Shown piece after piece: positions 25,525 to 63,528 of a stretch of DNA of 64,000 nucleotides; position 1 is the first letter of the stretch; every line of letters begins with the position of its first letter. Below the pieces are notes generated by a model. That model was not told the DNA's origin and made no database searches. It saw only the letters and a list, made by a program, of their open reading frames with translations. The translations under genes were made by a program, and so were the position numbers. Origin of the DNA: Ostreococcus lucimarinus (taxonomy: Eukaryota); NCBI GenBank assembly GCA_000092065.1, contig CP000600.1; one strand, written 5' to 3'.

Positions 25525-25893
25525 ATGGCGCAAGAGCAACGGCGCGGCGCGACGTCGAGCGCGATCACGCTCCGAGGGTCGACCGAGCTCGTGACGGAGT
25601 TTTTCGGGTACGCGGTGAACACCATCTTGTACCAGCGCGGGGTGTACCCGGCGGAGGAGTTTGAACGAAAGAAAAAGTACGGACTCGGGGTGATGGTGAC
25701 GAACGAACCGAAATTAAAGGAATACTTGGTCGCCGCGCTCGAACGCGTGAACGCGTGGTTGATGGAGAAGGATTTGAAAAAGTTGGTGCTGGTGCTCGCG
25801 GACGCGAAGACTGGGGAGACGCTGGAGCGCTGGACGTTCGACGTGGAGACGGATGCGGAGATCGTGGATGAGAACGGTGGTGATGCGAACGGA

Positions 25894-25943
<50 letters not shown>

Positions 25944-26208: not shown

Positions 26209-26407
26209 ACCGCGAGCGAGAGCGACATTTGTAATATCAACCAACGAAGCCGACGCAACGCGCAGCGCGTACGGTGAATGCGGTACGCGCTCGACGCCCA
26301 ATTCAACTCGCATCGTCCGACGAACGCTAAGTCTTTACGTACAAGCCGAAATTAAACGCGCCGACGTCGGCCGGCGCGCGCGACGCGACGCGCGACGTTG
26401 ACCGAGC

Positions 26408-33962: not shown

Positions 33963-36506
33963 ATGGAGTCGAAAAATAAAGCTTCGCGTGAACGGACGCG
34001 AACGCGGCGAGCGCGGCGAGCGTCGATTGGGTGTCGCGCTTTCGCGGCGTTGGCGAGTTGGTGCTGCGCGTCGCGGGCGCGAGGCGCGCACGGACGCTCG
34101 TGCGGGACGTGGGACGTCGCGCGGGTGGCGAACGTGGTGAATGGAATTGAAATTATGATCAGTGGGGGCTCGAGGGTGGAGGAAGCGCCGCGGACGGTGT
34201 GGGTGAATGGACGAGAGCGCTGCGCGAGCGAGTCGTTCTCGACGACGGCGACGACGGCGACATGCGTCATCGTCGAAGCGAACGAAAGAGCGCTGCGTGC
34301 GGCGAGAGATTTTGTGCGAGAGTTTACGTCAGTAGGTCGTGTGCAAGTGTGGGTGGCGAGTTTGCCGCCACGACTGATCGTGGACGCAACGACGAATACG
34401 CGGCACGCGTTGCGTACGATGGACGACGTCCTGAACGCGACGCGGACGGAGACGGAGACGAAAGAAGCGGATTTCAGGGTTGCTACCACCCGTGTTTACG
34501 CGTCATTCACCGTCGATGATCGCCAGTACGAAGAGAGCGCGGAGTATAAAGCCTTTGTCATCGCAACGAGTCACGCGCTCGATTCAACATCAAGGATGAG
34601 AACGCCAATCGATCCGCCTCGCGCGGGTGGCGCCGAAATATTTCGTCTCGACCTTGCAAACGCAACAAAGACGATCGAATTCATTGATCATCACCGAACG
34701 CGGTCGTTTTATCGCGTGACGTGTTGCGTTTCGGTTGGGCGATCGACTTTTGTACTATCCTTCGACGACGGCTCAGAGTGCACCGTGCGGTCGCCGAGTC
34801 GCGATCCAGTAAGACACTTGCGAGGAACAACCAATGATCCTTGCGTCGCCAAAGATCTCAGCCTACCTTATCCGGACGATATCACGTTAGAGTTTACGCC
34901 AAGCGAGCGAGCGACGTTCGACGAGTACCGAGGATTTTATCGTGGAAGTTACGAGAAAATGATGCGAGCCAAATCGAAATTTGCGCTCGCGGTGAGATTT
35001 GATGAAGGCCCGCGCTTGAGAGCTACGGCGCGTTTTCGAGGTGTATCCTCATTTCGAGATTGTGAACGGCGAAAGAGTCTCACCGTAGAGCTCGACGGGC
35101 GAGGCGTGCGCTTGATGCCTGGTTCCTTCGGGACAAAATTCCTGCTGATCAGCCTGTGCATCGATGATCGATACGTAAAGACACACCTCGTGTTGTCGAT
35201 GGCGAAGGCGCTCGGGACGTTTCCGCACGCTTTTCGATACGTCAGGTTAAAAATACGCACACGTGGTCAGAAAAGAGTGGAACATTCTGGCTTATACCTG
35301 CTCATGGATGACCCAAAGTCTTCGCTCGAGCGCGCGCACAATCAGCTCTCCGTCGTCGTGCGCCGACGGTTCGATCCAGCGAGGAAGAATTTTACCAGTT
35401 CCAAGGGTGTGCCCGAAGTGAAATCTTATCCAAATACAGATATTGAAGCAATCGCAGGTCGCGTACGATACGAACGCGTCGTTCTCGCAAGCGAGAGCTG
35501 CGAAGATAAAGCTTGTTTCGACGTTTTGAACAATTTGATCGACCTAGAAGGCTACCTTAGTTGGATGGCGCTGATGACGTGGGTCGAGTCGGGCGATTAC
35601 GTCGATGAACTCTGGTTATACGCATCAAATGAGAATGATGGGAAGCACCGTTTCAAAGTTCACGCGTGGGACCCTGACGATTCTTTTGAGTCTTGTCATC
35701 ACGGCGGCGAAGATGCAATCGTTGGGCTAGGCAATCTCCTGTACTGCGCGGAGGGCGCCATCGATCGCGTACTCGTACGATCTGAAAGCATGCGTGCTCA
35801 TTACATCAAGATTCTCAACGAAGTTCTTCGAGATAGACTAAACGAGCGAGCACTTCGGGAGATCGTTGATGCGCAAGAAGGACAAATTCGTCGGCTCCTC
35901 AACGACGATGACACCGCTCTCGGCCTGCTTGAGCTTCGGGAAATCGAGCCATCGATCGATAGCGCGACGGAGGCTGTGAGTGAAATCATCGGTTCATTGC
36001 GTTATTACAGAGACGTGATAAATTTTCGCAGACGTTCCTTGTTGCGCGACGCAGAAGCTTACGCATCATTCGACCCGAGCGCCACGGCGTGGACGTCGCA
36101 ACCAACGGCGGACGATTGCGACGATGGTGCGCCTACATTAGTGACGCAAGTACGAAGTTATGATAGGATTGATCAAGATATTTTGCTCAAAGTCAGTGGT
36201 AATGGTGGATCATACGCGCTGAACGTGTCTTTTGATCCCATCGTTGTCTACAATGGCTCGACGTACGTCGCCACGCGAGACGAGTTCGTGCTGGAGAGAT
36301 GGTCTTCTGAACAACACGAAAATGTCACACGCATGGCGATGTCATCGCCATGCGTGAGAACTTTCATCGGGGGTGGATACATCGTTCTGAGTTCCATTTG
36401 CGATGACTCAATCCCTCACATGTTTTCACTGCATCATCGATTCTGGCATGGTTTTGCCAACGCGTCTTCGCCGATGATAGTTAGTCGCCTACTCGGATGT
36501 GTGTGA
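33963..36506 (+). CDS. CotH-kinase-family-like protein with N-terminal hydrophobic signal/anchor (847 aa)
   Basis: ATG ORF whose N-terminus is ...IGCRAFAALASWCCASRARG. CotH-like blocks are ATARFRGVSSFRDCERRKSLTVELDG, GTKFLLISLCIDDRYVKTHLVLSMAKALG, YVRLKIRTRG..HSGLYLLMDDPK and IDLEGYLSWMALMTWVESGDYVDELWLYASNENDGKHRFKVHAWDPDDSF. Recognised by pattern only. Confidence 0.65.
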   Translation: MESKNKASRERTRTRRARRASIGCRAFAALASWCCASRARGAHGRSCGTWDVARVANVVNGIEIMISGGSRVEEAPRTVWVNGRERCASESFSTTATTATCVIVEANERALRAARDFVREFTSVGRVQVWVASLPPRLIVDATTNTRHALRTMDDVLNATRTETETKEADFRVATTRVYASFTVDDRQYEESAEYKAFVIATSHALDSTSRMRTPIDPPRAGGAEIFRLDLANATKTIEFIDHHRTRSFYRVTCCVSVGRSTFVLSFDDGSECTVRSPSRDPVRHLRGTTNDPCVAKDLSLPYPDDITLEFTPSERATFDEYRGFYRGSYEKMMRAKSKFALAVRFDEGPRLRATARFRGVSSFRDCERRKSLTVELDGRGVRLMPGSFGTKFLLISLCIDDRYVKTHLVLSMAKALGTFPHAFRYVRLKIRTRGQKRVEHSGLYLLMDDPKSSLERAHNQLSVVVRRRFDPARKNFTSSKGVPEVKSYPNTDIEAIAGRVRYERVVLASESCEDKACFDVLNNLIDLEGYLSWMALMTWVESGDYVDELWLYASNENDGKHRFKVHAWDPDDSFESCHHGGEDAIVGLGNLLYCAEGAIDRVLVRSESMRAHYIKILNEVLRDRLNERALREIVDAQEGQIRRLLNDDDTALGLLELREIEPSIDSATEAVSEIIGSLRYYRDVINFRRRSLLRDAEAYASFDPSATAWTSQPTADDCDDGAPTLVTQVRSYDRIDQDILLKVSGNGGSYALNVSFDPIVVYNGSTYVATRDEFVLERWSSEQHENVTRMAMSSPCVRTFIGGGYIVLSSICDDSIPHMFSLHHRFWHGFANASSPMIVSRLLGCV

Positions 36507-45668: not shown

Positions 45669-46442
45669 ATGGACGGCGCGACGCCGACGGCGGATTGGTT
45701 GAGCGACTTTTTTGACTCCTTTGACGCGGATGACGTCGGGGCGTTCGACGGCGCGAACGCGTTCGCGGACGTGCCGACGGAGGTGATCGGGGGTGAGGGC
45801 CCTAGGGTTCGAGCGGCGGGGACGAAACGAAAGGCGACGGAGGAGGCTGACGGGAGTCAGGATGAACGCGTCGCGGTGACGGCGACCTCGGTGGCGGCGA
45901 CCTCGGTGGCGGCGACCACGGCGGCGGCGACCACGGCGACGGGACGCTCGAATGTGTTGAGCGAAGGGGCGAAGAAGACGAAGAGCACGCGGGAGAAGCG
46001 TCGACGCGACGTTTTGAACAGTCGCTTTGAGGAGCTCAGCGCGGTGCTCGAACCGGGTGAGTCGCAGGGTGAGTCGCAGTCGAAGGCGACGGTGGTGTTC
46101 GCGGCGACGGAGTTGATCAAGCGACTGCGTGTCGAACACGCGAGGTTAGCGAACATGATCATGCGATTCCAAGAGGATAACCTGCTAAAGACGGAGCTCA
46201 CCCAAAAGCTCGCTGCGGAACGCGATCAACTCATGCAAGAAAAGACGCATTTATTGCGAGAGAAGCTTCGCATCGAGGCACAGTTACAAGGTTTCTTGAC
46301 GAGCATGCCGTTTGCGTCTCCCGCGGATGGCATGGTGTCCACGAAATCGGCGAGCGGCGTCGCGGCGTGGACCGTGCCCATGCCCTTCATGCCGGCGAGC
46401 GAAGAAGGAGAAGACGTCACCTTGCGCGCCCCTGTGGCGTAA
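45669..46442 (+). CDS. bHLH-zipper transcription factor (257 aa)
   Basis: From the ATG at 45669 (MDGATPTADWLSDFF...). The basic-HLH region is KSTREKRRRDVLNSRFEELSAVL...ATVVFAATELIKRLRVEHARL, followed by a heptad Leu zipper (LLKTELTQKLAAERDQLMQEKTHLLREKLRIEAQL). Confidence 0.75.
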   Translation: MDGATPTADWLSDFFDSFDADDVGAFDGANAFADVPTEVIGGEGPRVRAAGTKRKATEEADGSQDERVAVTATSVAATSVAATTAAATTATGRSNVLSEGAKKTKSTREKRRRDVLNSRFEELSAVLEPGESQGESQSKATVVFAATELIKRLRVEHARLANMIMRFQEDNLLKTELTQKLAAERDQLMQEKTHLLREKLRIEAQLQGFLTSMPFASPADGMVSTKSASGVAAWTVPMPFMPASEEGEDVTLRAPVA

Positions 46443-46544
46443 CCAATTGTCTTATGACAAATCGACATGATTTACAATTGTACCTAAAATATCCTAGTCC
46501 TAGTAATTTGTGATCATTTGTAATTTGTGATCGCAGAAAACGAA

Positions 46545-49500
46545 TCACGTGAGCCCGAGTACGGTGCGGTAATCTCGTCCAGGTTTACACACGATGAAAT
46601 CCGCCATATCGTCATACTCATCTTGCGCGCCGCCTTCTTGCGCCACGACGGCGTCCAAGTAAGGATTTCGTATGCGTTTACGAGGCTTTGATGCAGAATT
46701 TTCCCGAGACGAAACGTTCGACGGGCAGCATTTCAACACCTCTCCGTCGACGTTTTGCACGCTCTCACCGAGACGCGACAAATTTTCGCTGTAGAGTTCG
46801 ATGTCATCCATCGCGAGCGCGTTACCAATAGCCACTAAACCGCGATCAAGCGGCGTGCCACTGTTCTTCACGAGCTGAAGCGCCCTTAAGTTGGTGAAAA
46901 CTCCGGCGCAAACAACCATAAACTGTCGTCGTTTGAGTTCAAACGACCTGAGCACCTTGACGTCGTACAGATGTGACATCTTATCCGTGTTGTGATGCAA
47001 GCGAATGCCAGCGAGGACTAACGATGCATTTCGACGTTGACTTTCCAAATGTTTTTGATTTCCATCCGTGCGCGAAAGCTTCGAAGCCGCGGAAATGCAA
47101 CGTTCGAATGAATGCGTAGCCAACGACACGAAGTTTGCCTCGACGTCGTCCAACGACTTCTGCTTTGAGTGCACATGGCGCCACAATATATCACCCGACT
47201 TGACTAGAATCGTCGTCAGAGCGATGAACGCATCTTGTTTCTCAATTTTACCGTGCTGATCGTTGTCAGATGATAAATCTGTGACGATTTCATTCAAGAC
47301 ACTGAGCAAATCGTTGAGCTCATCGGGTATGGATGTCAAGGAATAGCTCAAGGCCATTTTCAACATCTCTGACGCGGTCTTGACGCAATCTGGCAGAGGG
47401 AATCGTCGACGATGATACTGTAAGATCGTGCAAGCGATGTGACACGTAGGCTCGATGGGCAACTCACGCAATTGAATAATATCGTCCTCAAGCATGACGA
47501 CAGAAGCCGACGCCAAGTCTGCATTTTCCACCAATGGCAGCATAGTGTCCAGCAAGTTCAAAACTTCATTGATGATCCGATCCCACGTATCGATCACGGT
47601 GCGTGAATTATACGTCTCTTGGAGCTGATGGTGCAAAGATGTCACGAGCGCGGCAACAACACCTGAGACTGGGGCCTCTACGCCTGCGCGTCCGGCGGCT
47701 TCGTAATCACTTCTCGCAAGATGAGGTTTACCGTAAGACGCGACTTCCTTTGCGGCGTTTTCTAATTCATCATCCGTGAAAGAAGCGCGCATCAAGTCTT
47801 GTAAAACGCCAAGATCTGGTCCGTACGACGCATTACGGCTGACAGCGAGTTCGCACAGCGCTCTGAGCGTTTGAAGAGCATCCAAAGTGGTCTTTGTCGA
47901 CCACAAATCTGAGTTCGGCGCCAATTCCTTCTTATCGAAAGCAAACCAGTTGTCTCGCAATGTTTCGACGCATTGACGCGCGCATGTATTCATAAGTGTC
48001 GCGTACTGATTAGAAGCACGCATATCACCGGAAGAAACGCGCGCCACGCGCAACGTGTGGGCACAAATTTGCGTGATGTGACGCTGCAATTCCGGAGACC
48101 ATTCCGCATCGTCAGACGAGAGCCTGACGCAACTATCAATGCACAAAGCAGATGACACGTTCCCAGCCCGCGTGTTCTCAGAACCGCAACTGAGCTGAAG
48201 ATGCATGAAAAGTAATCGCGTGATCCAACTCTCCAGCGTCTCGCTCGTACCCTCGTCGATCTTAGGGTGTTCTAATTGTTCCAACATCTCCTTGAACCAC
48301 GTCGAGTACGACAGCATGGAATCGAGGACGACTTCAACGACTGGTACAAGTTTAGCCAATACGTGCGACTCCACTTTGTCGTTTGCATCATCGAAAGCAT
48401 CGGCGTCGACGAAGTTGATTTGTTCACCATCTGTGTCTCTGGCTGACTCGGCTTGAAGGATGAGACACTCGCTCAGAGCCGATAGCAATCGAAGCGAGTT
48501 CCGCAAAATTTCTCTATTCTTGACAGATTTGCCGCTCACGTCGAGCGCCAAAATCAATCCGAGCGAGCTCGTGAGGGATTGAATCGTCGCAAAACTCAGC
48601 GTAGGGGTCTCTCTTCGCTGCGATAACGCTCTCAAGATTTCATTGATCGATAAGATGGCGTCAACCTTTGCTTCTGCCTCAGCCTTTTGCAGCATCGCTT
48701 CGTCCGCAATGGACTCGCTCGTAATCAACGTCGTCGCGACGACGAAAGCGTGTTGTCGGACACTCGAGCGGTCATCCACCATCGCGCGTTCTAAAGCCGC
48801 GATACCTGCGTCAAGATGATTGCCGGCTCGCATCATGTCACCGAGCATTTGCAAGCCTAAAATAGTTTTCGAGCAGTCGTCCTCGACGCTTTCGAACAAA
48901 GCCATCACCGGCGCGACGCCAGAGATTTTGGAGAGCGCCGCTACCGCCCTGCGCGCGATATCTCCCCCCTCTTTGACGCTCAACTGGGGTAAATATTCAA
49001 CCGCTCGCTGAATTTCACTCGACATTCTGTCGACGTGCGGCGCCGCGTCCATCTGGACAATCTCCTCGAGCGCGCGAAGCGCCGCGCGCGTTTGAACGCC
49101 CGTCGACAGCCGAGACAACAACGCGCCGAGAATTTCCACGCAAATCTCCGAATCTCTGCGCGCGATCGCTCGCAATACGTGTGCGTCGCTTTCTTTCACC
49201 TCCTCGAGCACGTATTTCGCCATGCTCTCCAACGATCTCGCATCACACGCTCTCAGCGCTCGCTCGACGTCGCTCGCGCTCGCGCTCGCCTCTCGCGCGC
49301 GTCCCCACGCCCTCGCCTCGATCAACACCGCCAACGTCGCATCCTTCGCGTCCCCTAACCGACGCACGCTCGCGTCGTACTCTTCGCACACGCGCGTCGT
49401 GAACCTCTCGTCCATCGCCGCCGCCCTTCGCGTCGCTTCGAGCGCCCGTTCGAGCGCCCGCCCGCTCGTCGACGCCGTCGCGCACAGCGTCCCCAACCAC

Positions 49501-49802
49501 GTCTCCGTCTCCGTCTCCCTCTCCTCCGCCGTTTCCTCGTCCTCGTCCGCCCGTCCGTCCGTTGCATCGTCGCACGTCCGCATCATCGCTTCGCAACACG
49601 CCCGCGCGACGATTTCGAGCGCCTCGTCGTCGTCGTCGTCCCTCGTCGCCGTCGCCATCGCGCGCGCGCCCTCGAGCGCGCGTCGTCGACATCGCGCGTC
49701 GTCGTCTCGCGTCATCCCTCGTCCGTTCGCCACGCATCGCATCGCTCGCGCGAGGTTCTCGCGCGTCCACGCCGCGTCGACGATCGCGCGCGGCGTCGAC
49801 AT
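46545..49802 (-). CDS. large alpha-helical (ARM/HEAT-like) protein, 1085 aa, unknown function
   Basis: The first ATG is at 49802; the track ORF starts at a TTG. Helix-repeat-like composition runs throughout. The C-terminal tail is KPRKRIRNPYLDAVVAQEGGAQDEYDDMADFIVCKPGRDY. No family recognised. Confidence 0.6.
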   Translation of the reverse strand: MSTPRAIVDAAWTRENLARAMRCVANGRGMTRDDDARCRRRALEGARAMATATRDDDDDEALEIVARACCEAMMRTCDDATDGRADEDEETAEERETETETWLGTLCATASTSGRALERALEATRRAAAMDERFTTRVCEEYDASVRRLGDAKDATLAVLIEARAWGRAREASASASDVERALRACDARSLESMAKYVLEEVKESDAHVLRAIARRDSEICVEILGALLSRLSTGVQTRAALRALEEIVQMDAAPHVDRMSSEIQRAVEYLPQLSVKEGGDIARRAVAALSKISGVAPVMALFESVEDDCSKTILGLQMLGDMMRAGNHLDAGIAALERAMVDDRSSVRQHAFVVATTLITSESIADEAMLQKAEAEAKVDAILSINEILRALSQRRETPTLSFATIQSLTSSLGLILALDVSGKSVKNREILRNSLRLLSALSECLILQAESARDTDGEQINFVDADAFDDANDKVESHVLAKLVPVVEVVLDSMLSYSTWFKEMLEQLEHPKIDEGTSETLESWITRLLFMHLQLSCGSENTRAGNVSSALCIDSCVRLSSDDAEWSPELQRHITQICAHTLRVARVSSGDMRASNQYATLMNTCARQCVETLRDNWFAFDKKELAPNSDLWSTKTTLDALQTLRALCELAVSRNASYGPDLGVLQDLMRASFTDDELENAAKEVASYGKPHLARSDYEAAGRAGVEAPVSGVVAALVTSLHHQLQETYNSRTVIDTWDRIINEVLNLLDTMLPLVENADLASASVVMLEDDIIQLRELPIEPTCHIACTILQYHRRRFPLPDCVKTASEMLKMALSYSLTSIPDELNDLLSVLNEIVTDLSSDNDQHGKIEKQDAFIALTTILVKSGDILWRHVHSKQKSLDDVEANFVSLATHSFERCISAASKLSRTDGNQKHLESQRRNASLVLAGIRLHHNTDKMSHLYDVKVLRSFELKRRQFMVVCAGVFTNLRALQLVKNSGTPLDRGLVAIGNALAMDDIELYSENLSRLGESVQNVDGEVLKCCPSNVSSRENSASKPRKRIRNPYLDAVVAQEGGAQDEYDDMADFIVCKPGRDYRTVLGLT

Positions 49803-49996
49803 CGCGCGTCGTCGGTCGGCGTCGTCGAGTGTCGCGCGCGGCGTCGTCGTTTGAATCCGACGCGCCGTCTGAATCCGACGGACGCGCACACGGACGCGCG
49901 CGGAACTCGACAAAGCGCGGCGCGGACGAACGCGTCGACGTCGGCGCTCGCGTCGGCGGCGCGCCTACACTCGACGGCGCCCACGCGCGAGTCGGC

Positions 49997-51504: not shown

Positions 51505-52578
51505 TTACTGTTGATTTCCTAGCTCGCCTCGCGCTGCTCGCCACGAGAAGCTTCCCGTTTGCCTTCCAGGCAGCGATTCCCCGATGTCTACGGCTGGTTT
51601 ATCGAGCTCGAGCGACTCCATCGCATCTTGGGCCTCGAGCTCTTTCACCTCATTCGCCGGTATTTGCATCCTGAGCTCGCGCGTCAGGGCGTCGCAGCGA
51701 CTCTTGAGCCACGGCTCGTACACCTCGCCGCGACGACGGTAGAGCGGCTTCATATCCTTCGTGTAACGTTTAGTCACATCCACCACGCCTTCGACTGAAA
51801 AGGCGATGACGTACGACAATTGTTTGCCCCAACCCTGTTCGTACAGCAACGGCTTATCGCACACGTTCTCGCAAGGATCGCAGTGTAACCACCGCTTTTG
51901 GCGTTCCGAATACACCTCGGTCCACACGTGGTCGGTCCAGTCGAGGACCCAACGCGCGCGATACCCCATCGCTCGGCAGCACAGCGTGAACGCGTTCGCC
52001 CACTCCCCGCATCTACCGCGACGCGTGTCGAGCAGTTTGATTGCGGAATTATACCGCGGAAATCGCGTCTCGGCGCGACACGTCGAGCACTCGTACACCT
52101 CCGCGCGACTCGCTTCGCCCTCGCGCTCTTCCGCGCGCAGCGCTTCGCCTTGATCGGTGCGTTTCAACCTCGTCTCCGCGTTCCCGCACTTTTCGCACTT
52201 CGGTTTATCCACCCACTCGAAAAAATCTTCCTTGAACCAGCGCAAGAGCGCGAGCAGCGTGGCGTCCTCCAGACTCACGCCGTCCCCCTCGTCCGCGCCC
52301 GTCGTCGCCGTCGTCGCCGTCGTCCCGTCCGTCGCCTCCCTCTCCCTCTCCCTCGCCGTCGTCGCGCTCAATCGCATCACCGTTCTCTCTCCCTCGCGCC
52401 GCAGCGTCTCCGTCGGCATCGCGCTCGTCGCGCACGTCGTCGCGAGCTCGTCCTCGTGCGACGCCACCTGCGCCGCGCCCGCGCGCAGTCGCGCGTCGAA
52501 TCGCGCGCGCGCGGGCGTCGTCGTCGCGGCGTCGACGCGCGCGAACGCGTCTCGCAGCGCGCGCGCGTCGATCGTCAT
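51505..52578 (-). CDS. PNG1: peptide:N-glycanase (PNGase, transglutaminase-like fold)
   Basis: From the ATG at 52578. A zinc-ribbon is followed by the catalytic core: LLRWFKEDFFEWVDKPKCEKCG, YECSTCRAETRFPRYN, RRGRCGEWANAFTLCCRAMGYRARWVLDWTDHVWTEVY and WLHCDPCE. Confidence 0.85.
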   Translation of the reverse strand: MTIDARALRDAFARVDAATTTPARARFDARLRAGAAQVASHEDELATTCATSAMPTETLRREGERTVMRLSATTAREREREATDGTTATTATTGADEGDGVSLEDATLLALLRWFKEDFFEWVDKPKCEKCGNAETRLKRTDQGEALRAEEREGEASRAEVYECSTCRAETRFPRYNSAIKLLDTRRGRCGEWANAFTLCCRAMGYRARWVLDWTDHVWTEVYSERQKRWLHCDPCENVCDKPLLYEQGWGKQLSYVIAFSVEGVVDVTKRYTKDMKPLYRRRGEVYEPWLKSRCDALTRELRMQIPANEVKELEAQDAMESLELDKPAVDIGESLPGRQTGSFSWRAARGELGNQQ

Positions 52579-52743
52579 GCGCCGCACCGTGACGACATCG
52601 GCGACGCCGGAGACGCCGCATCGCGTCGCGTCGTCCTGGAGACGCTGGGTCGAAATCGCATCGTCCTGGAGACGCCGCGACGCCCGCGCGGCGCCAGATC
52701 GAGCGGCGACGCGCGTCGCGCCGCGCGTCCGGGACGCGTCGCG

Positions 52744-53694
52744 ATGACGAGCGAGGGCGCGACGACGACGACGACGGCGGCGGCGGCGGCGACGCGCGAA
52801 CCGCGGGTCGGCGAGAAACGCGCGCGACGCGACGACGACGACGACGAGGCGAACGGGCGACGCGACGGTGGGAAGACGACGACGGACGACGAGCGCGGCG
52901 GTGACGACGCGCGCGAGGACGGGAAAACGAACGAGGGGAAGACGAACGACGTCGCGAGCGAGGACGCGGCGAAAGCGACGACGAGCGGGTTCGGGAGCGC
53001 GCTCGCGAACGCGGGCTTCGGCGGCTTCGGCGGTTTGAAGAGCGCGGCGGCGAGCGGAGGGGGATTCGGAGGGTTCGCCGCGGCGAGCGCGAGCGCTGGA
53101 ACGGGTGGATTCGCGTCGAAAGCGGCGACGCCAGTGTTCGGTGGCGCGGTGGCCGCGCCCGTGGCGCTGTTCGGGGCGGGGAAGAAGAAGGAAACGACGA
53201 CGGAGGAGGACGAAGAGGGCGACGACGACCCAGAGCGCGAAGTCGCGAACGATTCTATCAAGCCAGTGGTGGAGTTGGAAGTCATCGAGACGAAAACTGG
53301 TGAGGAAGGTGAAACGTGTGCGTTTCGCACCGAAGGCGCGCTGTTTGAGTACGTCAACGACGCCGAGAATGGGTCGCGTTGGGTCGAGCGCGGCCGAGGA
53401 GACGTGAGGCTCAACGAGGGTGAAAACGGCTCTCGACTCGTCATGCGAGCTAAGGGAAACTTTCGTCTGATGCTCAACGCGGCGCTTTTCAAAGGTCAAA
53501 AGTTTCAGTTGATGGAAGGGGGCAAGGGGGTGTCGTTTACGTGCGTAAACGCGGCGTCTGGTGCCGACGCAAAGATGAGCACGTTTGCTCTGAAGATGCG
53601 CGCGGCGGCATCAAACGCGCAATCTCAGGCGGAGAACTTTCACGTAGCCGCGAAGAAAGCGATCGAAAAGCTATCCGAAGAAACACACAACTAA
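52744..53694 (+). CDS. FG-repeat + Ran-binding domain protein (NUP50/RanBP3-like)
   Basis: From the ATG at 52744. FG/GFG repeats (SGFGSALANAGFGGFGG, GGFGGFAA, PVFGG, ALFGAG) are followed by a RanBD: TGEEGETCAFRTEGALFEYV...RWVERGRGDVRLNEGENGSRLVMRAKGNFRLMLNAALF. Confidence 0.75.
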   Translation: MTSEGATTTTTAAAAATREPRVGEKRARRDDDDDEANGRRDGGKTTTDDERGGDDAREDGKTNEGKTNDVASEDAAKATTSGFGSALANAGFGGFGGLKSAAASGGGFGGFAAASASAGTGGFASKAATPVFGGAVAAPVALFGAGKKKETTTEEDEEGDDDPEREVANDSIKPVVELEVIETKTGEEGETCAFRTEGALFEYVNDAENGSRWVERGRGDVRLNEGENGSRLVMRAKGNFRLMLNAALFKGQKFQLMEGGKGVSFTCVNAASGADAKMSTFALKMRAAASNAQSQAENFHVAAKKAIEKLSEETHN

Positions 53695-53728: not shown

Positions 53729-55903
53729 CTACGTTTGTACGAGAGCGTCCAGAGCTGTGAGGAGCGAGCGAATCTGCACTTTCGGCGCTTGTTCCAATCC
53801 TTTTCTGAATCTCCAGATCAACTTGAGCGCATCGTTGGCGGTATAATTGATCACAATTGGCAGATTTAAAGTTCTGTTACCGCCTTTTAACGATACGACG
53901 AGCGAACCAGGAGATAAAGCCCGAATCGCTGCGCGCGAATTCGGCGCAAACAAGTCCACTGGGACTTCGCGGCCGAGCGCTTCAAGAACCTTTTTCAGCT
54001 CCGATCGAGACAATTCAATTTTCCGCTTCGTGTTCATTAACGGCTCAATGATATGCATGCCATCTTGAGTCAGCATATAAAAGTCATCACGCTCTGATTG
54101 CTCCCAAATCTTGACACCCGACCAAACGCAGCTCATTCGCTTTGCGCCAGGTGAATCTATGCAGTGCTTCTTGACTCCTTCAGCGATATACACGATAGAC
54201 TTCTGTTGATTTGAGCGCGCGTAGAGGCAAGGGGCGATTTTTTCCGAGAATTTATCACCAAGACCAAACTCTTTTGCCAACTTTTTCACCAATGTGCTCG
54301 AAACTTTTGAGTAGACGTGCTTTGGTTCCGTGCGCTCATAAGCGCGGTCGACTTTTTCTGCGGTCGACTCCTTCGCCTGTGGTCCGGGAATCGGCGCCAC
54401 CTTTTTCAATAAGACTGCAAAAAATCCGCCCATGTCTTGTAAGTGAGGTACGAGCCTCATGCAGTGCTGCAATGGGATCGCCGTCGACTTGATGCGTTTT
54501 CCGAGATGGCCCATTCGCGCCAGCGACTGCGCCGGCGGCCACATCGATTTCGCAAACTTTCGCTTCAATCCAATGGGCACGGTCGAAGCTTGACTATCCT
54601 CGTACTTTGGATATTCTACTACGTTCCCTTCGACCATGGTCATCACGTTCCAAGTCGATATTCCCGGTCTGCGCAGTAACTCGGGAATTCGATCAGAAGC
54701 GTCGACAATTTCTAGCGCTCCACCGCACCGTTTGATGAGCTCTGCGACGACAGCCTCGTTTTCCACTGGGTTGAATGAGCACGTACTGTAAACCATATAT
54801 CCACCAACATTAAGGAGTGCCGCGCCACGCTGCGCAATGCGTAGCTGTAGCTTGTGAAGGCCCATGGCGAATTCGGGGCGCCATTCGGACCAAATCTGTG
54901 GGTTTTTCCTAAGCGTTCCGTCACCACTGCACGGAACATCACAAATGATACGATCGTAAGAGCCTTCTGGATATCTTCCTCCGCGTTCAGTCAATGCCTT
55001 ATCGGTGGTAGGTACGTTGATATTTGGATACCATTGAGCTTGGTGCGTCGTCACCATCAAATTCGCAGTGGCGTTGCGAAGCGCTGCACAGCGTCGTACT
55101 AGGAAATAACATCGCATCGGATTAATATCGTTCGCGATGACGCATCCAGACGCCGATCCTTCCTCTCCATTGACGTTGAGTGCCTCAAGTGCCTGCGTAG
55201 TTTTCGATCCAGGACTTGCGCAAAGGTCGAGCACGCGATGGTGCGGCTCGACTTGTAAAATTGCCGCGGGAACCATGGAATCCACCGCCTGTCGAGTGAG
55301 AACGCCGGTATTGTTGCACTTCACCAACCAACGCTGCAAATCTCTCAACATTGGATTTCGAGAGAACTTCAGGCTCATCTTGTCCACGCCGAGCTGCCAT
55401 CCGTCACACCACGGCAGGCGTGTTGGCGGCGGTATCAACCGTCCCCGGTCGTCCCTCGTTTCTCTCGCGTTTTGCAGAAAGTGTTTCGCCACGTTCAGCG
55501 CTTCGCGCACTTCTTCTCGTCTCGACGCCATAACGTTCATCCTAAATGTCACCGGTAAAGGCAATCGAAGGTACCTCAAAAAGTCTCTCCACTCGCCCTC
55601 GTCCACTATGCCCTGTCGTCTGTAGTACGTCTCAAACGACGTCTCCTCGTGCACCGAAAGCGTGCGCGAGAACCAAGGCGCGGACGTCCGCGGAAGCATG
55701 ATCGTTTCTGTCGTCGTCGTCGCCTCGTTCGCGCTGTTTCGTCGCCCAGCGTCATCAGCGTCATCGTCGTTCCTCGTCGCTTTCGCCGCCGCCTCGAGCG
55801 CCCTCGCGCGTTTCCTCGCGCGCACCATGCGCTTCGATCGCGATCGCTTCCCCGACACCGACGCACCGCCGATCGTGTCGTCATTCCACGCGTCGTGCTG
55901 CAT
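53729..55903 (-). CDS. NSUN2: tRNA (cytosine-C5)-methyltransferase NSUN2/Trm4 (NOL1/NOP2/Sun family)
   Basis: The first ATG is at 55903. Motifs are FETYYRRQGIVDEGEWRDFLRYLRLPLPVTFRMN, VLDLCASPGSKT, DRIICDVPCSGDGTLRKNP, GGYMVYSTCSFNPVENEAVV and GGFFVAVLKK-like GGFFAVLLKK. Confidence 0.85.
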   Translation of the reverse strand: MQHDAWNDDTIGGASVSGKRSRSKRMVRARKRARALEAAAKATRNDDDADDAGRRNSANEATTTTETIMLPRTSAPWFSRTLSVHEETSFETYYRRQGIVDEGEWRDFLRYLRLPLPVTFRMNVMASRREEVREALNVAKHFLQNARETRDDRGRLIPPPTRLPWCDGWQLGVDKMSLKFSRNPMLRDLQRWLVKCNNTGVLTRQAVDSMVPAAILQVEPHHRVLDLCASPGSKTTQALEALNVNGEEGSASGCVIANDINPMRCYFLVRRCAALRNATANLMVTTHQAQWYPNINVPTTDKALTERGGRYPEGSYDRIICDVPCSGDGTLRKNPQIWSEWRPEFAMGLHKLQLRIAQRGAALLNVGGYMVYSTCSFNPVENEAVVAELIKRCGGALEIVDASDRIPELLRRPGISTWNVMTMVEGNVVEYPKYEDSQASTVPIGLKRKFAKSMWPPAQSLARMGHLGKRIKSTAIPLQHCMRLVPHLQDMGGFFAVLLKKVAPIPGPQAKESTAEKVDRAYERTEPKHVYSKVSSTLVKKLAKEFGLGDKFSEKIAPCLYARSNQQKSIVYIAEGVKKHCIDSPGAKRMSCVWSGVKIWEQSERDDFYMLTQDGMHIIEPLMNTKRKIELSRSELKKVLEALGREVPVDLFAPNSRAAIRALSPGSLVVSLKGGNRTLNLPIVINYTANDALKLIWRFRKGLEQAPKVQIRSLLTALDALVQT

Positions 55904-56068
55904 CGCGTCGTCGCGCCTCGACGCGTCGACGTCCGCGCGCGCGCGTCTGCAGCGCTCGTCCGCACACGTCGACCGCGGGCGCGGCGAAGCGACGCGAGAG
56001 GCGGCGCGAGCGAGCGCTCGAGCGAGGGCGACGTCGTCAGTCGTCGAATTCTGACGCTCGACCGCGCG

Positions 56069-59000
56069 ATGACGACCGCGAGCCTCGCGTCGCCGCGCGA
56101 CGTCGCGGAGGAGGAGGACCGACGGGACCAACGACCATCGGCGACGAAACGAAGCGATGACGCGGCGTCTACGAGCGAGAACGACGTGCCTGAAGAATAC
56201 GCTGAGAACGCGAGTGCGGTGATACGCGAAACGCTCGATGGCTTCCTCGAGTACGTCGAGACGTGGGCGCAGAAGACGAGGGAGACCGCAGACAACTTGG
56301 GGGAGGAGGGTGTTTCAAATCGCGGGCCGCGCGCGAGCGGGAACGGGGCGAAGGATGCGATCGTCCTGAACGGCGATCCGCGCGAAAATATACGGATTGA
56401 AGATCTCGTCACGTGCGAAAATGCGCTGTTGAGCAAGACGACGATGATTTTAGCGCATTTAGGCGGCGAAGTCGAGCGGTTGAGCGCCGTGGCAGACGAA
56501 ACAATTTATCCGATGCTTACGACTTTCGGCGAGAGAGCGAATGATGCGGACGTGATGTCCGATGCAGAGTTACGAGATGCATTCGTTGGGAAATTAGAGC
56601 CGCTTCAAGACGCACTGTTATTCATGGATCAAGTCAGAGCGGTCGTGTGTAACTTGTTCACGCAACTCACGGTGGTGTATTCGACGTTCGCGGCATACAC
56701 GCCGTATCAAACTGTGCGTTTGGCGTGGTCATTCGATATGCTCGGTCGTGCACTAGCAATTGGAGTCGGAATTGATGAGGTGGTTAGGAACAATAGGGCG
56801 TTGCGGTCGGCGCTGATGAATTTCAAACGCGTGGTGCTGCTCCTTCGAGCCAATCCCGAGCAGTTCGGCATGAACGAAGTCGACGTCGTGAGCTTGGATT
56901 CGGCGGTTGCGATCATCGAAAATCAATTGCTCTCATCTTCATTCTTTGCCTCAGTGCTCACACAGCTCACAGAAACCGAACAACCTGATCGATTTATCAA
57001 GGAGCTCGCCGGCACAACTCTCGAGCTTCTCGAAAGCACGACGGCTCGATTGAATACCGACTCGGAGCGGTTGAACGATAAACGCACACTGCTGTCGTGT
57101 CTTTGCTTGACTATGCTTCATTCAGGATTAGTTCCCGATATAGCCGATAGAAAACTCTGCATGAAGGCGTGGGAAGTCTACAAGGTGTGCGTGCTGGTGT
57201 CGGTGACGACGACGGTTTCAGTGTGTCCAGGGGCAATACTAGAAGCGCATCTATCTCCAGCCGCACGAGAGTGCTTTCCTGATAATGGTTTAGAATCAGT
57301 GATCTCGTTTCGTCGAGAGACGCTCGAGACTCTGGATGAGACTTTCCCTGCGAAGCTCCTCGATTTGTTGTCGGCTTCAGTCGCCTGGCTCACCAAGTTT
57401 ACGGCGACACCAAACGTCTCGCATAGCTTATCGAGCACAATGAACGCTCGCACGAGTTTGTTTCAGGAGGGTATGAGACTGGTAAATCGACTGCGCCACT
57501 ATACTCAGGAGATCATACACCTCCACGTGTCTCTGGAGGCCCCGGTCACGAAGCGGCGGGTGCGACTCATCGCTCGCGCCGTGGAAATGTTGCAAGCCAT
57601 GTGCGAAGCTTTCACTCAAAATCTCAATTTGAGTTTGGAAGTGCAGCACGTGCTGAAATTTCTAGCAGATAGAATACATCGCATGATGGTACGTTTGAAA
57701 CGCTTCTGAGATCGATCGGCTCACATCTGACCTTTTCACGCAGGTTCCTACTCGGGAATTATTAGAAAACAAAATTTCGACGACGACGACGTCGAGTGGA
57801 TGGGAACGCTTAAAGGCTCAAATTTCGTCGGGAAAAGCCGAAAACAATAAACAGGACACCCTCGCGACGGTCAATATCGCAGGTAAGCTTTTCATTCTCC
57901 GTCTAGATGACGTACAAATTAAATTAATTATTTCATTTATTTAGTGCATGTTTTGTCTGGGCCGGCGACTCGAAAAAGGATGCATGTTCTTCGAATCTGC
58001 CTCGATGCGATCCGTGGAGCGAGTCTTCTCAGTGATGAAGATGTCGTGCTCGCATCTGAGTTCGTGGAACTCGTAGAAGTGCTCTCCACGTACCGCAAAA
58101 GCGTTCAAGATCAATGTGATACTTCCTTTTTATTTTTCACGAGGGAATTATTTCCGGTGTGTTTGGCTGATATTTACGTCAAGCCGAACGAATCTGGACG
58201 TCTTACTTTGCTTGTGAGTGCGTTTCGCAATTGTGAAACGTTATTAATGCGTGCTGGAGCGAGCGATAGCGAAGTGGCGACGTTTGACAATTATATTCGA
58301 ACGTCACTGGAGCGAGAAATAATTCAACCGCTTTGTCGAGATATTGAGACAGATTTGAGGTTGCATCTTCATTCTGCGCGCATAGCAGGCGTCATGAACA
58401 CGAATCCGTTCAAGGATGGCGTTCGAGACTTGTCGTTGTTCACGAATCTGCCGCCAATCTACACGTTGAAGCACCAGGTGCGAATATTATTTATTTAATT
58501 AATTGTGGCGAATTTGAAACTGACCGGATTTCGTCCTCGTCGTTGACAGATCGACATTCGTAATCGCGTCGAAGGTTATTTAAATCAGACCTTCCACAAT
58601 CACACGGCGATTGCTCTTCATAACTGGAAGGTGAGTGATAAAATAATTAATTTGTCCTACTTCGCAACCGAGCGAGCTGCCTTTTACGAAAACGACGACT
58701 AACGATCTATTCGCGCGCAGTCTTACGTGGAAATGAGAAATCTTGCGATAGAAAAGTACGGCTTACGCTGCGCCGAGATTGAGCTTCCGAGCCAGACGCT
58801 CGAACAAGGCTTGGATGTGTTGGAGCTGATGCGCAATATCCACGTCTTCGTGTCGAGGTACAACTACAACTTGAACACACAGTGCTTTGTCGAGAAGGCG
58901 AGCGCGGCGCTCGATCGCAAGCATCTGAACACCATAAGTATTCGGCATGTCGCCAACTCTATCAGAACGCACGGAACGGGCATCACGCACACGACCATCA

Positions 59001-59965
59001 ACTTTGCCTATCAGTACCTGGCGCAAAGATTTCAGATTTTCAACCAGTTTCTCTTTGACGACCACATCAGAAGTCAACTCATGAAAGAAGCTCGAATGGT
59101 GCACGCCGAGACAAAGGCTAAGAGTGATACTATCAAGTTAAGCTCAAAGCAAGCAGGATATCGCGCATCGACTGTGGACGAAAAGTTTGAGTACCCAGTC
59201 GAACGCGCCCTTCGAGTGATGCGCGACATTCGAAAGCTCGGTTTATCGAAGGACGGCTCTTCGTTCATCGACGAGTTCCGTGTGTTAGTGACTGAAATCG
59301 GTAATGCGCTCGGTTTTGTTCGCATGGTTCGTCTCGGTGCGATGCACTACAGCACCAACGCCGCCAAGTTTGTACCGAGTGCGCGCGGGTCGAAGTTCGC
59401 CCTCGATGAGAGCCTCGACGCCGACGGTTTGTCCGAGTGGACAAAGACGGCACTGAAAAATCTGCAGAGTGAATTAAAAGCCTTAAGCACAGGCGGTACC
59501 GATGGTACTGACTATTTTCAAGTCCTCGTATCGGTTTTTTCGACCGAGCTTCGAAAGGGTCACGAACACCTAAAAGACTTTTACTTGGTGCTTCCAGCGC
59601 TCACGATGAGCGCCGCTGAAACCATCCTGGCTTCAAAAGACAAGCTCGTGCGACGTGGTAAAGATTCACAGACCGCCACTTTCACCGATGATGGTTTAGC
59701 ACTTGGGATCGTGTACCTGCTGAGCGTCCTCGATCAACACGAAGCCTTCGATGCGCTGCATTGGTTTGAGTCCGCCTCGCACCACTTCGAAGCGGAGGAG
59801 AAGCGCGCAAACGAGGAAACCGGTGGCACTTTCGGCATTTTAGGTCGTAGCATCGACGAAAAGACCAAGCTTCAGGTCAAGTTGGATAAGATTGACGCGT
59901 TAAGGCGCGAGTTTGTACACTTGAAGCATTCACTCGTCGGCGCGCGAAGCTTTGTGAATTTGTAA
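56069..59965 (+). CDS. WASHC4: WASH complex subunit SWIP (WASHC4 / WASH-7), about 1205 aa, 5 exons: 56069..57688, 57744..57882, 57945..58477, 58550..58630, 58721..59965
   Basis: Collinear with human SWIP from LDGFLEYVETWAQKTRETADNL (human [21 protein letters not shown]). The match runs through DQCDTSFLFFTRELFPVCLADIY, LCRDIETDLRLHLHS, IDIRNRVEGYLNQTF and SQTLEQGLDVLELMRNIHVFVSRYNYNLNTQCFVE...LNTISIRHVANSIRTHGTGI. It ends at FTDDGLALGIVYLLSVLDQHEAFDALHWF. The exons are three large track ORFs plus two small exons, all joined in phase. Confidence 0.88.
57689..57743 (+). other. SWIP intron 1 (55 nt)
   Basis: ATGATG|GTACGT donor, caTCTGACc branch 13 nt upstream of the TTTTCACGCAG acceptor, phase 0. 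Confidence 0.8.
57883..57944 (+). other. SWIP intron 2 (62 nt), AT-rich
   Basis: GCAG|GTAAGC donor and TTTATTTAG acceptor, phase 1. The body contains AAATTAAATTAATTATTT. Confidence 0.8.
58478..58549 (+). other. SWIP intron 3 (72 nt)
   Basis: CAG|GTGCGA donor, aaACTGACcgg branch 24 nt upstream of the TTGACAG acceptor, phase 0. The body contains TTATTTATTTAATTAATT. Confidence 0.8.
58631..58720 (+). other. SWIP intron 4 (90 nt)
   Basis: AAG|GTGAGT donor, cgACTAACga branch 18 nt upstream of the GCGCGCAG acceptor, phase 0. The body contains AAAATAATTAATTTG. Confidence 0.8.
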
Positions 59966-60124: not shown

Positions 60125-61555
60125 ATGTCGTGCCAAGCGATGTTAAACACGCCCGCGCTCGCGCCGGCGGTGACATCCGTCGCCCACCGTCGCCCTAGCC
60201 GCCGAGGTGCTCGCGCGTTGACGCGCGCCAACGCCGGTGGTGCCATGGAGCAGCTCACGTTGAAGCCGATGAAGAAAATTGAAGGCACGGTTCGATTGCC
60301 GGGGTCTAAGTCGCTGTCAAACCGCATTCTGCTCCTCGCGGCGCTCGCAGAAGGAACGACCAAGGTGGAAAACTTGTTGGATAGCGACGACATTCGTTAC
60401 ATGGTTGACGCGCTTAAAGTTCTGGGGCTGTCCTTCACGGAAGACAGAGAGAACAACATTTTGGAAATCACCGGTTGTGGGGGTAAGCTCCCGGTCGAGG
60501 GCGCGGAGTTGTTCCTCGGTAACGCCGGGACGGCGATGCGACCGCTCACCGCCGCCGTGGCTGCGGCGGGTAAAGGCACGTTCATCCTCGATGGTGTCGA
60601 GCGTATGCGTGAAAGACCAATTCAAGATCTTGTTGATGGTTTGGTTCAGCTTGGTGTCAAGGCGGAGTGCACGATGGGTACGGGTTGCCCGCCGGTGAAG
60701 GTTGAGGCGAACGGCTTGCCTGGCGGTCGCGTCGAGCTCAGCGGTTCCGTGAGCTCGCAATACCTCACCGCGCTCCTCATGGCGGCCCCACTTTGCGAAG
60801 GGTCGATTGAAATCGTAATTGTCGATGAGCTCATCTCCAAACCGTACGTTGAGATGACTATCACACTCATGGAACGCTTCGGTGTCAAGGTAGAAAAGGC
60901 GGACGACCTCCAGAGCTTTAAGATTCAAGGCGGACAAAAGTACATCTCCCCGGGCAGTGCATTTGTTGAAGGCGATGCTTCGTCCGCTTCCTACTTCCTC
61001 GCCGGTGCCACCATCACCGGTGGTACCGTCACTGTCATCGGTTGCGGTTCGGAGAGCATCCAAGGCGACACAAACTTTGCGTACACGATGGAGCAAATGG
61101 GCGCGACGCTCGAGTGGGGTCCGAACTCGGTCACCTGCACCGGTCCCAAGGGCCCGCTCAAGGCGATTGATGTGAACATGAACGCCATGCCCGACGCTGC
61201 GATGACTCTTGCCGTCGCTGCACTCTTCGCTGACGGCATCACTACCATTCGTGATGTCGCGAGCTGGCGCGTGAAGGAAACCGAGCGCATGATTGCGATT
61301 TGCACCGAGCTGCGCAAGCTCGGTTGCGACGTCTTCGAAGGCGCGGATTACTGCGTCATCACCCCTCCTCACAAGCTCGACCCCCCGGCCAAGATGAAGG
61401 CCAACGTTGACATCGATACCTACGACGATCACCGCATGGCCATGGCTTTCGCCTTGGCCGCGTGCGGCGACGTCGACGTCGTCATCAACGACCCGAAGTG
61501 CACGAAGAAGACTTTCCCGACGTACTTTGACGTCCTCAAGTCCGTCGCCAAGTGA
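60125..61555 (+). CDS. aroA: 3-phosphoshikimate 1-carboxyvinyltransferase (EPSP synthase) with chloroplast transit peptide
   Basis: [72 protein letters not shown] and [12 protein letters not shown]. Confidence 0.95.
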
Positions 61556-61663
61556 GCGTCGCGCGCATCTTCGACGTATTAGCTATTATAGAATTGGTGC
61601 AAGCTATCGTATATGAATCATTGGATAAATTTGTCTACCGTCCCCTCTCGCGAGTCGCGAAAC

Positions 61664-61951
61664 CTACTGCGGCGGCCCGCCCATTTGTTGCATCGATTGC
61701 GCGTTTAATTCCGCGAACCGCACCGACGTTCGCGCCGAGTGCTTCAGGAACTTTTCGCAGCACTTCGACACGCATCGCTCTTCGTCCTTCTCCAGCGTTT
61801 TCCTCCGAAACGACTGCACGCACGTCGAGAAGCACCGCTCCACCAAGTTGTTATACATCTTCAGGCTGTCTCGCGTCTGCATCGCTTCGATCATGCCCAT
61901 CATCTTCGCCTTGTCTTCCTCCGGGAACCCATCGAGCATGGCTGGGTCCAT
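61664..61951 (-). CDS. TIM9: mitochondrial import inner membrane translocase subunit Tim9 (small Tim, twin CX3C)
   Basis: FPEEDKAKMMGMIEAMQTRDSLKMYNNLVERCFSTCVQSF...EERCVSKCCEKFLKHSARTSVRFAE. It is near-collinear with plant TIM9, and the twin Cys-x3-Cys motifs are present. Confidence 0.9.
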   Translation of the reverse strand: MDPAMLDGFPEEDKAKMMGMIEAMQTRDSLKMYNNLVERCFSTCVQSFRRKTLEKDEERCVSKCCEKFLKHSARTSVRFAELNAQSMQQMGGPPQ

Positions 61952-62412
61952 GGCGACCTCGGTTTCGCTCGAGTCCGTCGCCGCGTCGCTCGGCGGCGTC
62001 TGCGGTGCCGCCGTCGCGGGCCGCCTTTCGACCCCGACCTAGGGTTCGGGCGCGCCCTCGATCGCGCGCGAAATCCGAGGCGCGGGCGTCCGAATGTGCC
62101 GGGGCGGGCGGGGCGGGTGTCCGAATGTCCGAATTGCGCGCACGTCCGCACTGTTTGCGCACACGATACAGACGTCCGCGCGCGCGTGTGATCTTTCGCG
62201 CCGACGTCACGCGCGTCGAGAGGGCGCGCGCTCGGACGCGTCGCGCGCGAGCGGGGACGGGGCACAGCGCGACGCGACGGCGAGGAACGACGCGAAAGAT
62301 TGAGTCGCATCACCGCGCGCGCCGGGCGAGGACGACGCGCGCGAACGACGGCGAGAAGACGCGCGGAAGACGAGGGCGAAAGAGCGAGGGCGAAGGGCTC
62401 GGTGGGGGGAGT

Positions 62413-63528
62413 ATGAAGACGCGGGGACGGACGACGCGGGCGCGGTCGGAGGACGCGGGGGAAGAAAACGAGGGCGCGCGAGATGGAGACGCGGGGAAGG
62501 CGCCCGAGGGAGCGACGGAGGAAGCGGCGGTGCCGAATGATGATTTTCTGTGCCTGTTCGACGAGAGCGCGCGAGAAGAGCCGGCGACGCTGAACGGGGC
62601 GTGGGAGGACGTGTTCGCGCAGCATCATCACGCGAACGCACCGCAAGGCGGTGTGGAAGGAGGGTTTCATCAAGGCAGTGAAGACGCGGGTGAACACTTT
62701 CCACAATCTGGATACGTGGACACGGTGCAGTACAAGCTTCCGACGACGCGCCCAGGGGTGGCGTCGACGTCGAGAGGGCGCGTGACAAAATCGCGCAGCG
62801 GCACTAGAACGTCAGGTTCGAGGAAGCCAAAGCCGATATCTCAATCTTTACCACCACGCCCGCAAGCGATGATGGCTCCGCTACCTCAGCCGATGTCACC
62901 GATGATGTACCGTTCGCCGGGGGGCAAGCCGAGGTCTTCGAGGTACAACGGCGTGTGCCGCCACGCCAAGTCTGGGCGTTACGAGGCGCACGTCTGGTTG
63001 AGAGAGTCACGACGGCAAGTTTACCTAGGTGGACACCTGGAGGAAGAGTTTGCCGCCGAGGCTTTTGATATCATTGTGTTGAAGCTCGCACGCATCGGCG
63101 ATCGCTCTCGAACAGGAACGCGTCCGCTTAAAATGAACTTTCCCGAGTCTCGTTACGCAAACTTGATCGGTTTCATTGATTCTCTTACGCTCGATGAACT
63201 GATCATGGAGGTTCGCCGACATTCCGAAGGTTTTGCGAGGGGTAATTCGGGATACAGAGGGGTCACGCAACACTCGCCTAAGAAGTTTGAGGCGAGAGTC
63301 GGAGTGCCCCCGCAAAGCAAACACGTGTACTTGGGGCTCTACGATTCTGCCGAGAAAGCTGCGGTGGCGTACGACACCGCTCTCGTTCAAGCGAGGGGAC
63401 GGAGAGCTTCGACGAACTTTCCAATTTACAACTACGACGAGCACATTCGCCAATACGAAGAAGCAGTGGCGAGGAATCCGGCGCTCGAGCAACACGAGCA
63501 CGGGCAGTACGAAGATTTACAACGATGA
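62413..63528 (+). CDS. AP2-family transcription factor with two AP2/ERF domains (ANT/AP2-like)
   Basis: From the ATG at 62413. Domain 1 is SSRYNGVCRHAKSGRYEAHVW...QVYLGGHLEEEFAAEAFD...NFP. The linker is LTLDELIMEVRRHSEGFARGNS. Domain 2 is GYRGVTQHSPKKFEARVG...HVYLGLYDSAEKAAVAYDTALVQARGRRASTNF. Confidence 0.85.
   Translation: MKTRGRTTRARSEDAGEENEGARDGDAGKAPEGATEEAAVPNDDFLCLFDESAREEPATLNGAWEDVFAQHHHANAPQGGVEGGFHQGSEDAGEHFPQSGYVDTVQYKLPTTRPGVASTSRGRVTKSRSGTRTSGSRKPKPISQSLPPRPQAMMAPLPQPMSPMMYRSPGGKPRSSRYNGVCRHAKSGRYEAHVWLRESRRQVYLGGHLEEEFAAEAFDIIVLKLARIGDRSRTGTRPLKMNFPESRYANLIGFIDSLTLDELIMEVRRHSEGFARGNSGYRGVTQHSPKKFEARVGVPPQSKHVYLGLYDSAEKAAVAYDTALVQARGRRASTNFPIYNYDEHIRQYEEAVARNPALEQHEHGQYEDLQR

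Follow-up and report, generated by a model that had tools for sequence, protein, structure and literature searches.

Does the green alga Ostreococcus lucimarinus carry a complete and working gene for SWIP (WASHC4), a subunit of the actin-nucleating WASH complex? The question is raised by a stretch of 64,000 nucleotides (nt) from contig CP000600.1 (assembly GCA_000092065.1), hereafter the window, in which three large open reading frames (ORFs) and two small exons had been read as a single gene in a first-pass annotation. We find that positions 56069-59965 on the plus strand are very probably a functional nuclear SWIP gene of O. lucimarinus, the product of which would serve as a scaffold of the WASH complex.

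The three ORFs are present at 55649..57709, 57944..58498, and 58727..59965, as had been described. Joined in frame with the small exons through four GT-AG introns, they give a coding sequence of 3618 nt for a protein of 1205 amino acids (aa), with the sole stop codon at its end; the five in-phase exons and the length of about 1205 aa given in the first-pass annotation are thus reproduced. Exon 1 (56069-57688, 1620 nt) encodes aa 1-540, with an N-terminus of poor conservation followed by the greater part of WASH-4_N. Exon 2 (57744-57882, 139 nt) encodes aa 541-586 plus 1 nt and belongs to the end of WASH-4_N. Exon 3 (57945-58477, 533 nt) continues to aa 764 and holds the end of WASH-4_N and the start of WASH-7_mid. 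Exon 4 (58550-58630, 81 nt, aa 765-791) encodes the peptide IDIRNRVEGYLNQTFHNHTAIALHNWK, and exon 5 (58721-59965, 1245 nt including the stop codon, aa 792-1205) encodes the rest of WASH-7_mid, where the near-invariant SQTLEQGLDVLE...IRTHGTGI block is located, and WASH-7_C. While the small exons had been placed exactly, exon 3 starts at 57945 rather than 57944 and exon 5 at 58721 rather than 58727. The limits first given for the large exons were those of the ORFs, and the actual exon ends lie a few bases inside.

All four introns run from GT to AG on the plus strand and are AT-rich, with a guanine-cytosine (GC) content of 26-49% vs 59% for the window. Intron 1 (57689-57743, 55 nt) has ATGATG directly before the donor cut and GTACGT after it, and a CTGAC motif resembling a branch point 17 nt from its 3' end. 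Intron 2 (57883-57944, 62 nt) has a GC content of 26%. CTGAC is found again in intron 3 (58478-58549, 72 nt), 30 nt from the 3' end, and CTAAC in intron 4 (58631-58720, 90 nt), 22 nt from the 3' end.

Are these exons indeed joined? Three diverged Ostreococcus or Ostreococcus-like loci from metagenomes (L007, L008, and L010) were compared with the window. L007 and L008 are syntenic with it, having the same order of an NSUN2-like transfer RNA (tRNA) methyltransferase gene, SWIP, and the EPSP synthase gene (EPSPS). Global alignment places all four introns at identical positions in both, the intron 1 donor site included, with GT..AG kept. In all three lineages (the window, L007, and L008) the lengths of exons 2, 3, and 4 agree exactly (139, 533, and 81 nt), and the spliced frame is open in each. 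The introns themselves vary in length (55/58/59, 62/61/60, 72/70/70, and 90/88/89 nt in the window, L007, and L008), by numbers that are not multiples of three. The fourth lineage, L010, retains introns 3 and 4 in place. Its intron 4 is 90 nt long, in frame, and free of stop codons (exon 4/5 region, about 300-400), so that ORF callers fuse exons 4 and 5 across it and report a 493-aa ORF with a spurious insert of 30 residues. Loss of the intron in L010, which was considered, is therefore rejected.

The protein family gives the same answer. In a multiple alignment of 11 diverse full-length members none of the four junctions coincides with an insertion or deletion, and the fish, camel, and Taxus proteins and an uncharacterised homologue, aligned pairwise, show no gap at junctions 2-4. 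Exon 4 aligns ungapped, across both of its junctions, to mammalian, fish, and gymnosperm proteins as well as to the 11 full-length members. That the three large ORFs are separate, unspliced genes, as prokaryote-style callers annotate them, is what metagenome pipelines imply when they call proteins of 546, 172, and 410 aa, and the Joint Genome Institute (JGI) labels the exon 5 ORF 'WASH complex subunit 7', the former name of subunit 4, whereas the first ORF (546 aa) is a 'hypothetical protein' there. These called ORFs, however, begin or end inside introns, the gap-free alignment to full-length family members requires the small exons 2 and 4, and the splice sites and the 139-, 533-, and 81-nt exons are kept while the intervening lengths vary by non-multiples of three. 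We give the separate-gene interpretation next to no chance.

A palindromic motif, AATTAATT, is found in introns 2, 3, and 4 of the SWIP gene (57922-57929, 58497-58504, and 58645-58652). The orthologous introns of L007, L008, and L010 carry it at matching positions despite saturated synonymous sites. The shorter AATTAAT occurs 10 times in the window vs 2.5 times expected, and the remaining sites are in or just past a lysyl-tRNA synthetase ORF. AATTAATT may be an intron-definition or regulatory signal.

To which family does the 1205-aa product belong? The hidden Markov model scan proposed with the first-pass annotation matches all three Pfam models of SWIP over their full coverage and in the expected order, each well above the gathering score of 25 bits: WASH-4_N at aa 66-647 (E value 6e-69, 233.5 bits, model positions 7-572 of 572), WASH-7_mid at aa 648-1011 (3.6e-124, 414.8 bits, 1-343 of 346), and WASH-7_C at aa 1032-1202 (6e-42, 143.7 bits, 1-173 of 175). 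Searched exhaustively with HMMER, a set of 1.84 billion representative proteins yielded 1780 family members, the full-length ones being about 1030-1290 aa long. Many of the 1780 are 1000-1250 aa long and align in a single stretch over residues of about 90-1197 of the query; for example, query residues 32-1197 align to residues 32-1187 of a 1194-aa protein, and dozens more align in this manner. The conserved block pointed out earlier, LPSQTLEQGLDVLE[L/I]MRNIH[V/I]FVSRY.YNLN.Q.F[V/I]E...KHLNTI.IRH[V/I]ANSIRTHGTGI, is seen in the alignment to camel WASHC4, and its core LPSQTLEQGLDVLE.MRNIH.FVSRY...IRTHGTGI is present in the alignments to both camel WASHC4 and Taxus. Judged by its sequence, the product is a full-length SWIP with similarity far beyond chance, and the collinearity first proposed for it holds against full-length family members.

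Other searches bear on how the protein is represented in public collections. A word-index search gave 287 matches to the mid domain (the proteins listed being about 640 aa or less) and no match to the full-length query, the latter being attributed to a limitation of its candidate step. The exact 1205-aa product is absent from a collection of 15 billion proteins, and among the 1.84 billion representatives HMMER found no full-length protein more than 50% identical to it. For these two reasons the public SWIP model may differ from the 1205-aa one. It is a lesser possibility that the five-exon model corrects the public annotation.

Alternatively, the ORFs could be what is left of a decaying ancestral SWIP gene. 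Fragmentary WASH pseudogenes are reported from angiosperms (PMC3298513), and, at 0.515, the GC content of SWIP is below the average of the window (0.595). The SWIP proteins of the three lineages are 66-73% identical. The proportion of synonymous sites that differ (pS) is 0.71-0.77 and hence saturated, vs 0.16-0.23 for nonsynonymous sites (pN), and, in comparisons that allow an estimate of dS, the ratio of nonsynonymous to synonymous substitution rates (dN/dS) is about 0.08. Constraint is strongest on WASH-7_mid and the C-terminal domain and weakest on the first 65 residues (pN 0.32-0.38). Purifying selection is found on every part of the protein, including regions outside the most conserved block. 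In addition, ocean metagenomes often contain contigs with 99.9% identity to the window, and 12 environmental copies of the O. lucimarinus-type gene contain no insertion or deletion (indel), no premature stop, and 0-2 amino-acid changes. These near-identical copies differ at only 1-5 sites per 3.9 kb, too few for a population dN/dS, which was dropped in favor of the diverged orthologues.

Decay of the reading frame in other strains, raised earlier as a possible sign of degeneration, is found neither in the 12 environmental copies nor in the three diverged lineages. With pN far below pS and the environmental copies free of indels and stops, the pseudogene reading is excluded for practical purposes; full coverage of the Pfam models also speaks against it, and the neighbouring NSUN2 and CotH genes have a similar GC content. 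In terms of its sequence, the SWIP gene is intact, predicted to be functional, and under strong purifying selection in several Ostreococcus lineages.

One synonymous site in exon 1, position 56197, is A in the window and G in 12 of 12 environmental copies. The A is therefore a private allele relative to the ocean population.

SWIP is known as a subunit of a complex. Are its partners encoded as well? WASH and the Arp2/3 complex were reported in Ostreococcus species by Kollmar et al. 2012 (PMC3298513), in a survey that explicitly left out the other subunits of the WASH complex, and O. lucimarinus appears to encode all five subunits according to the review of Yanagisawa et al. 2013 (PMC3689024). 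The full-length OslWASH of the Kollmar supplementary alignment is exactly XP_001419630.1 (ABO97923.1) of O. lucimarinus CCE9901, so that the catalytic partner WASH1 is present in the same species. It has a WASH_WAHD match (E value 8e-24), a WH2 match that stays below the Pfam cut-off of 23.1 bits (5.8e-4, 19.9 bits), and an acidic C-terminal tail with a tryptophan, ending in ...DDDVSDWDSD. WASH is reported to be the only recognisable activator of the WASP family in Ostreococcus.

Strumpellin was sought with a human sequence, validated by its score of 1676 bits on the Pfam Strumpellin model. Intronless full-length strumpellin ORFs, named 'WASH complex subunit strumpellin' by JGI, are found on long marine contigs and match the whole model at 900-1370 bits. 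Those scoring 1283-1368 bits lie on contigs with an Ostreococcus-like GC content of 0.56-0.60. One of the strumpellin ORFs is adjoined by a CCT-delta gene, the nearest named relatives being green algae. The partner search suggested earlier has thus located WASH1 in O. lucimarinus itself and strumpellin on marine contigs, some of them of Ostreococcus-like GC. A tblastn search of about 0.85 Mb of collected loci with human CCDC53 and OslWASH gave no match, which is expected and uninformative.

Full-length strumpellin is also encoded on marine contigs with a GC content of about 0.47 (L041-L075), which are Bathycoccus-like by GC. The one at 3644-7711 of L050 (901 bits) has a long N-terminal extension that is poly-proline and acidic. 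This suggests retention of the WASH complex in a second genus of Mamiellales, putatively assigned by GC and outside the 2012 survey.

Two possibilities had been put forward for SWIP in this alga, a retained WASH/Arp2/3 module or a role independent of the complex. The first is favored by WASH1 of the same species, the strumpellin contigs, and the published surveys. That SWIP is kept for an independent role, or in a reduced complex without FAM21 and/or CCDC53, gains some room from the fact that these two subunits are known here from a review statement and that the Kollmar survey did not cover subunits other than WASH. WASH1 with its WAHD, below-threshold WH2, and acidic tail, full-length strumpellin on contigs of Ostreococcus-like GC, the report of all five subunits in O. 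lucimarinus (PMC3689024), and purifying selection across every part of SWIP all argue against it, and we consider it improbable. Slightly more room, though still little, is left for a broader variant: a reduced or rewired module (e.g., SWIP-strumpellin-WASH1 without canonical FAM21 or CCDC53) or an additional, complex-independent role of SWIP.

In the favored reading, the SWIP gene is transcribed from a short region presumably shared with the divergent NSUN2-like gene, and the transcript is spliced at the four short GT-AG introns to encode the 1205-aa protein. By homology, SWIP would be a large alpha-helical scaffold that pairs with strumpellin. The two would hold WASH1, CCDC53, and FAM21 in the pentameric WASH regulatory complex, with SWIP stabilising that part. 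SWIP may also help to anchor the complex on endosomal membranes by binding phosphoinositides; a retromer-independent, phosphoinositide-based anchoring on endosomes has been described for SWIP (bioRxiv 10.1101/2022.08.16.504073). There the WH2/acidic tail of WASH1 would activate Arp2/3, producing branched actin for cargo sorting and tubule fission. The scaffold mechanism is modeled on work in animals and Dictyostelium, and assembly of the complex, membrane binding, and the endosomal role would hold in the alga by analogy with other organisms.

Several points limit the case for a functional SWIP gene acting in a complete WASH complex. The four junctions are predicted from comparative and homology evidence. 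ATG 56069 is the first in-frame ATG in the upstream ORF, but the exact position of the start codon is uncertain because the first 65 residues are so poorly conserved. No solved structure matches SWIP by sequence. The strumpellin contigs appear green-algal with an Ostreococcus-like GC content and are not tied to O. lucimarinus itself, and for FAM21 and CCDC53 in this species the source is the review statement that all five subunits appear to be encoded (PMC3689024).

How much of this is new? The first-pass annotation held either a retained module or an independent role of SWIP to be worth documenting, but the WASH machinery of Ostreococcus was published in 2012-2013 (PMC3298513, PMC3689024). 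WASH/Arp2/3 in this genus is already known, and the sole small addition made here is a well-supported five-exon model. The loss from land plants that was mentioned earlier is only part of the picture: WASH is reported from moss, Selaginella, and gymnosperms, and its loss falls at a later stage of seed-plant evolution (PMC3298513). SWIP of the gymnosperm Taxus, which is 45-50% identical to that of Ostreococcus, is an instance of such retention in land plants. The results support earlier publications in which the endosomal actin module of WASH and Arp2/3 goes back to the ancestor of the green lineage and disappeared piece by piece, with survivors in Ostreococcus, mosses, lycophytes, and gymnosperms. 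In practical terms the value is modest. Being genetically tractable and equipped with a minimal endomembrane system, Ostreococcus tauri could serve as a simple system for the function of the WASH complex.

The surroundings of the gene are ordinary for the most part. The NSUN2-like gene is on the minus strand with its ATG at 55903, leaving 165 bp (55904..56068) between the two divergent genes; from this layout the region is presumed to be a shared promoter region. On identical metagenome contigs, a 724-aa NSUN2 gene and the 546-aa first ORF of SWIP are called back to back. On the other side lies the EPSP synthase ORF (60125-61555). Over 436 aa its product has 100% identity to XP_001422572.1 of O. 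lucimarinus CCE9901, which marks the window as DNA of the CCE9901 type. A scan for bacterial promoters and terminators was at chance level, such models being irrelevant for a eukaryote. SWIP was also considered as a compositional outlier, and this was rejected, its GC content of 0.515 being matched by NSUN2 (0.534) and CotH (0.542). Among the genes inspected in the window, introns are found only in SWIP. Ordinary intronless housekeeping genes are found at 28495-33258 (minus strand), 8120-10849 (minus), 15085-17043 (plus), 51508-53499 (minus), and 61552-63525 (plus). They encode a ferredoxin-type glutamate synthase, an importin-beta-like HEAT protein, an SPB4-type DEAD-box helicase, a Rad4/PNGase-like transglutaminase-fold protein, and an AP2-domain protein.

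Three further ORFs are less ordinary. In the 899-aa ORF at 23610-26306 (minus strand), a tRNA methyltransferase domain of the TrmK type (aa 403-606) is joined to a C-terminal AlkB-like 2-oxoglutarate and Fe(II)-dependent (2OG-Fe(II)) oxygenase domain (aa 694-879), an unusual fusion in the style of a writer plus an eraser. The 847-aa ORF at 33963-36503 (plus) encodes a complete CotH kinase domain (1e-57), here in the genome of a picoeukaryote, although the family is known mainly from the spore coats of bacteria. The 1122-aa ORF at 46548-49913 (minus) has no Pfam match and lies partly in a stretch of lower GC (0.51, 46001-48000). On identical metagenome contigs the corresponding gene call is about 1300 aa long and likewise has no Pfam match.

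Could SWIP have come from elsewhere, as a recent horizontal acquisition or a contaminant of the assembly? Its distribution in green algae is patchy, and in the survey of Kollmar et al. 2012 (PMC3298513) Micromonas, Chlorella, Chlamydomonas, and Volvox have no WASH. However, the NSUN2-SWIP-EPSPS order is shared by at least three diverged Ostreococcus lineages and SWIP-EPSPS by a fourth, identical copies are found in many ocean metagenomes, the introns look native, and the best named relative outside the genus is a gymnosperm. A foreign origin is thus highly improbable, if a shade less so than either unspliced genes or a decaying relic.

How does the SWIP of Ostreococcus compare with known systems? 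Its counterpart in the WAVE complex is reportedly Sra1, and that of strumpellin is reportedly Nap1. As Jia et al. 2010 is cited in PMC3689024, each subunit of the WASH complex is structurally analogous to a WAVE subunit. By this analogy SWIP would be the counterpart of the large scaffold of the WAVE (SCAR) complex. Similarity to Sra1/CYFIP is not detectable at the sequence level, and SWIP matches neither a CYFIP nor a Sra1 family in Pfam. Human and other animal WASHC4 proteins (SWIP, KIAA1033) have the same WASH-4_N, WASH-7_mid, and WASH-7_C architecture and a similar length. Camel WASHC4 is 41% identical over 571 aligned positions (the last 560 residues), with the SQTLEQGLDVLE...IRTHGTGI block nearly invariant. 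Ostreococcus SWIP differs from these in its unrelated, fast-evolving N-terminal 65 residues and in a Ser/Lys-rich insertion of 30-40 residues at about aa 920-960, and its gene has just four very short introns. The closest named relative outside Ostreococcus is KI387_019410 of Taxus chinensis, a partial protein with 50% identity in the mid domain and 45% across 482 aa, which aligns without a gap across exon 4. Animal SWIPs reach 44-47% over the mid domain. A closest named relative in a gymnosperm supports vertical descent of SWIP within Viridiplantae.

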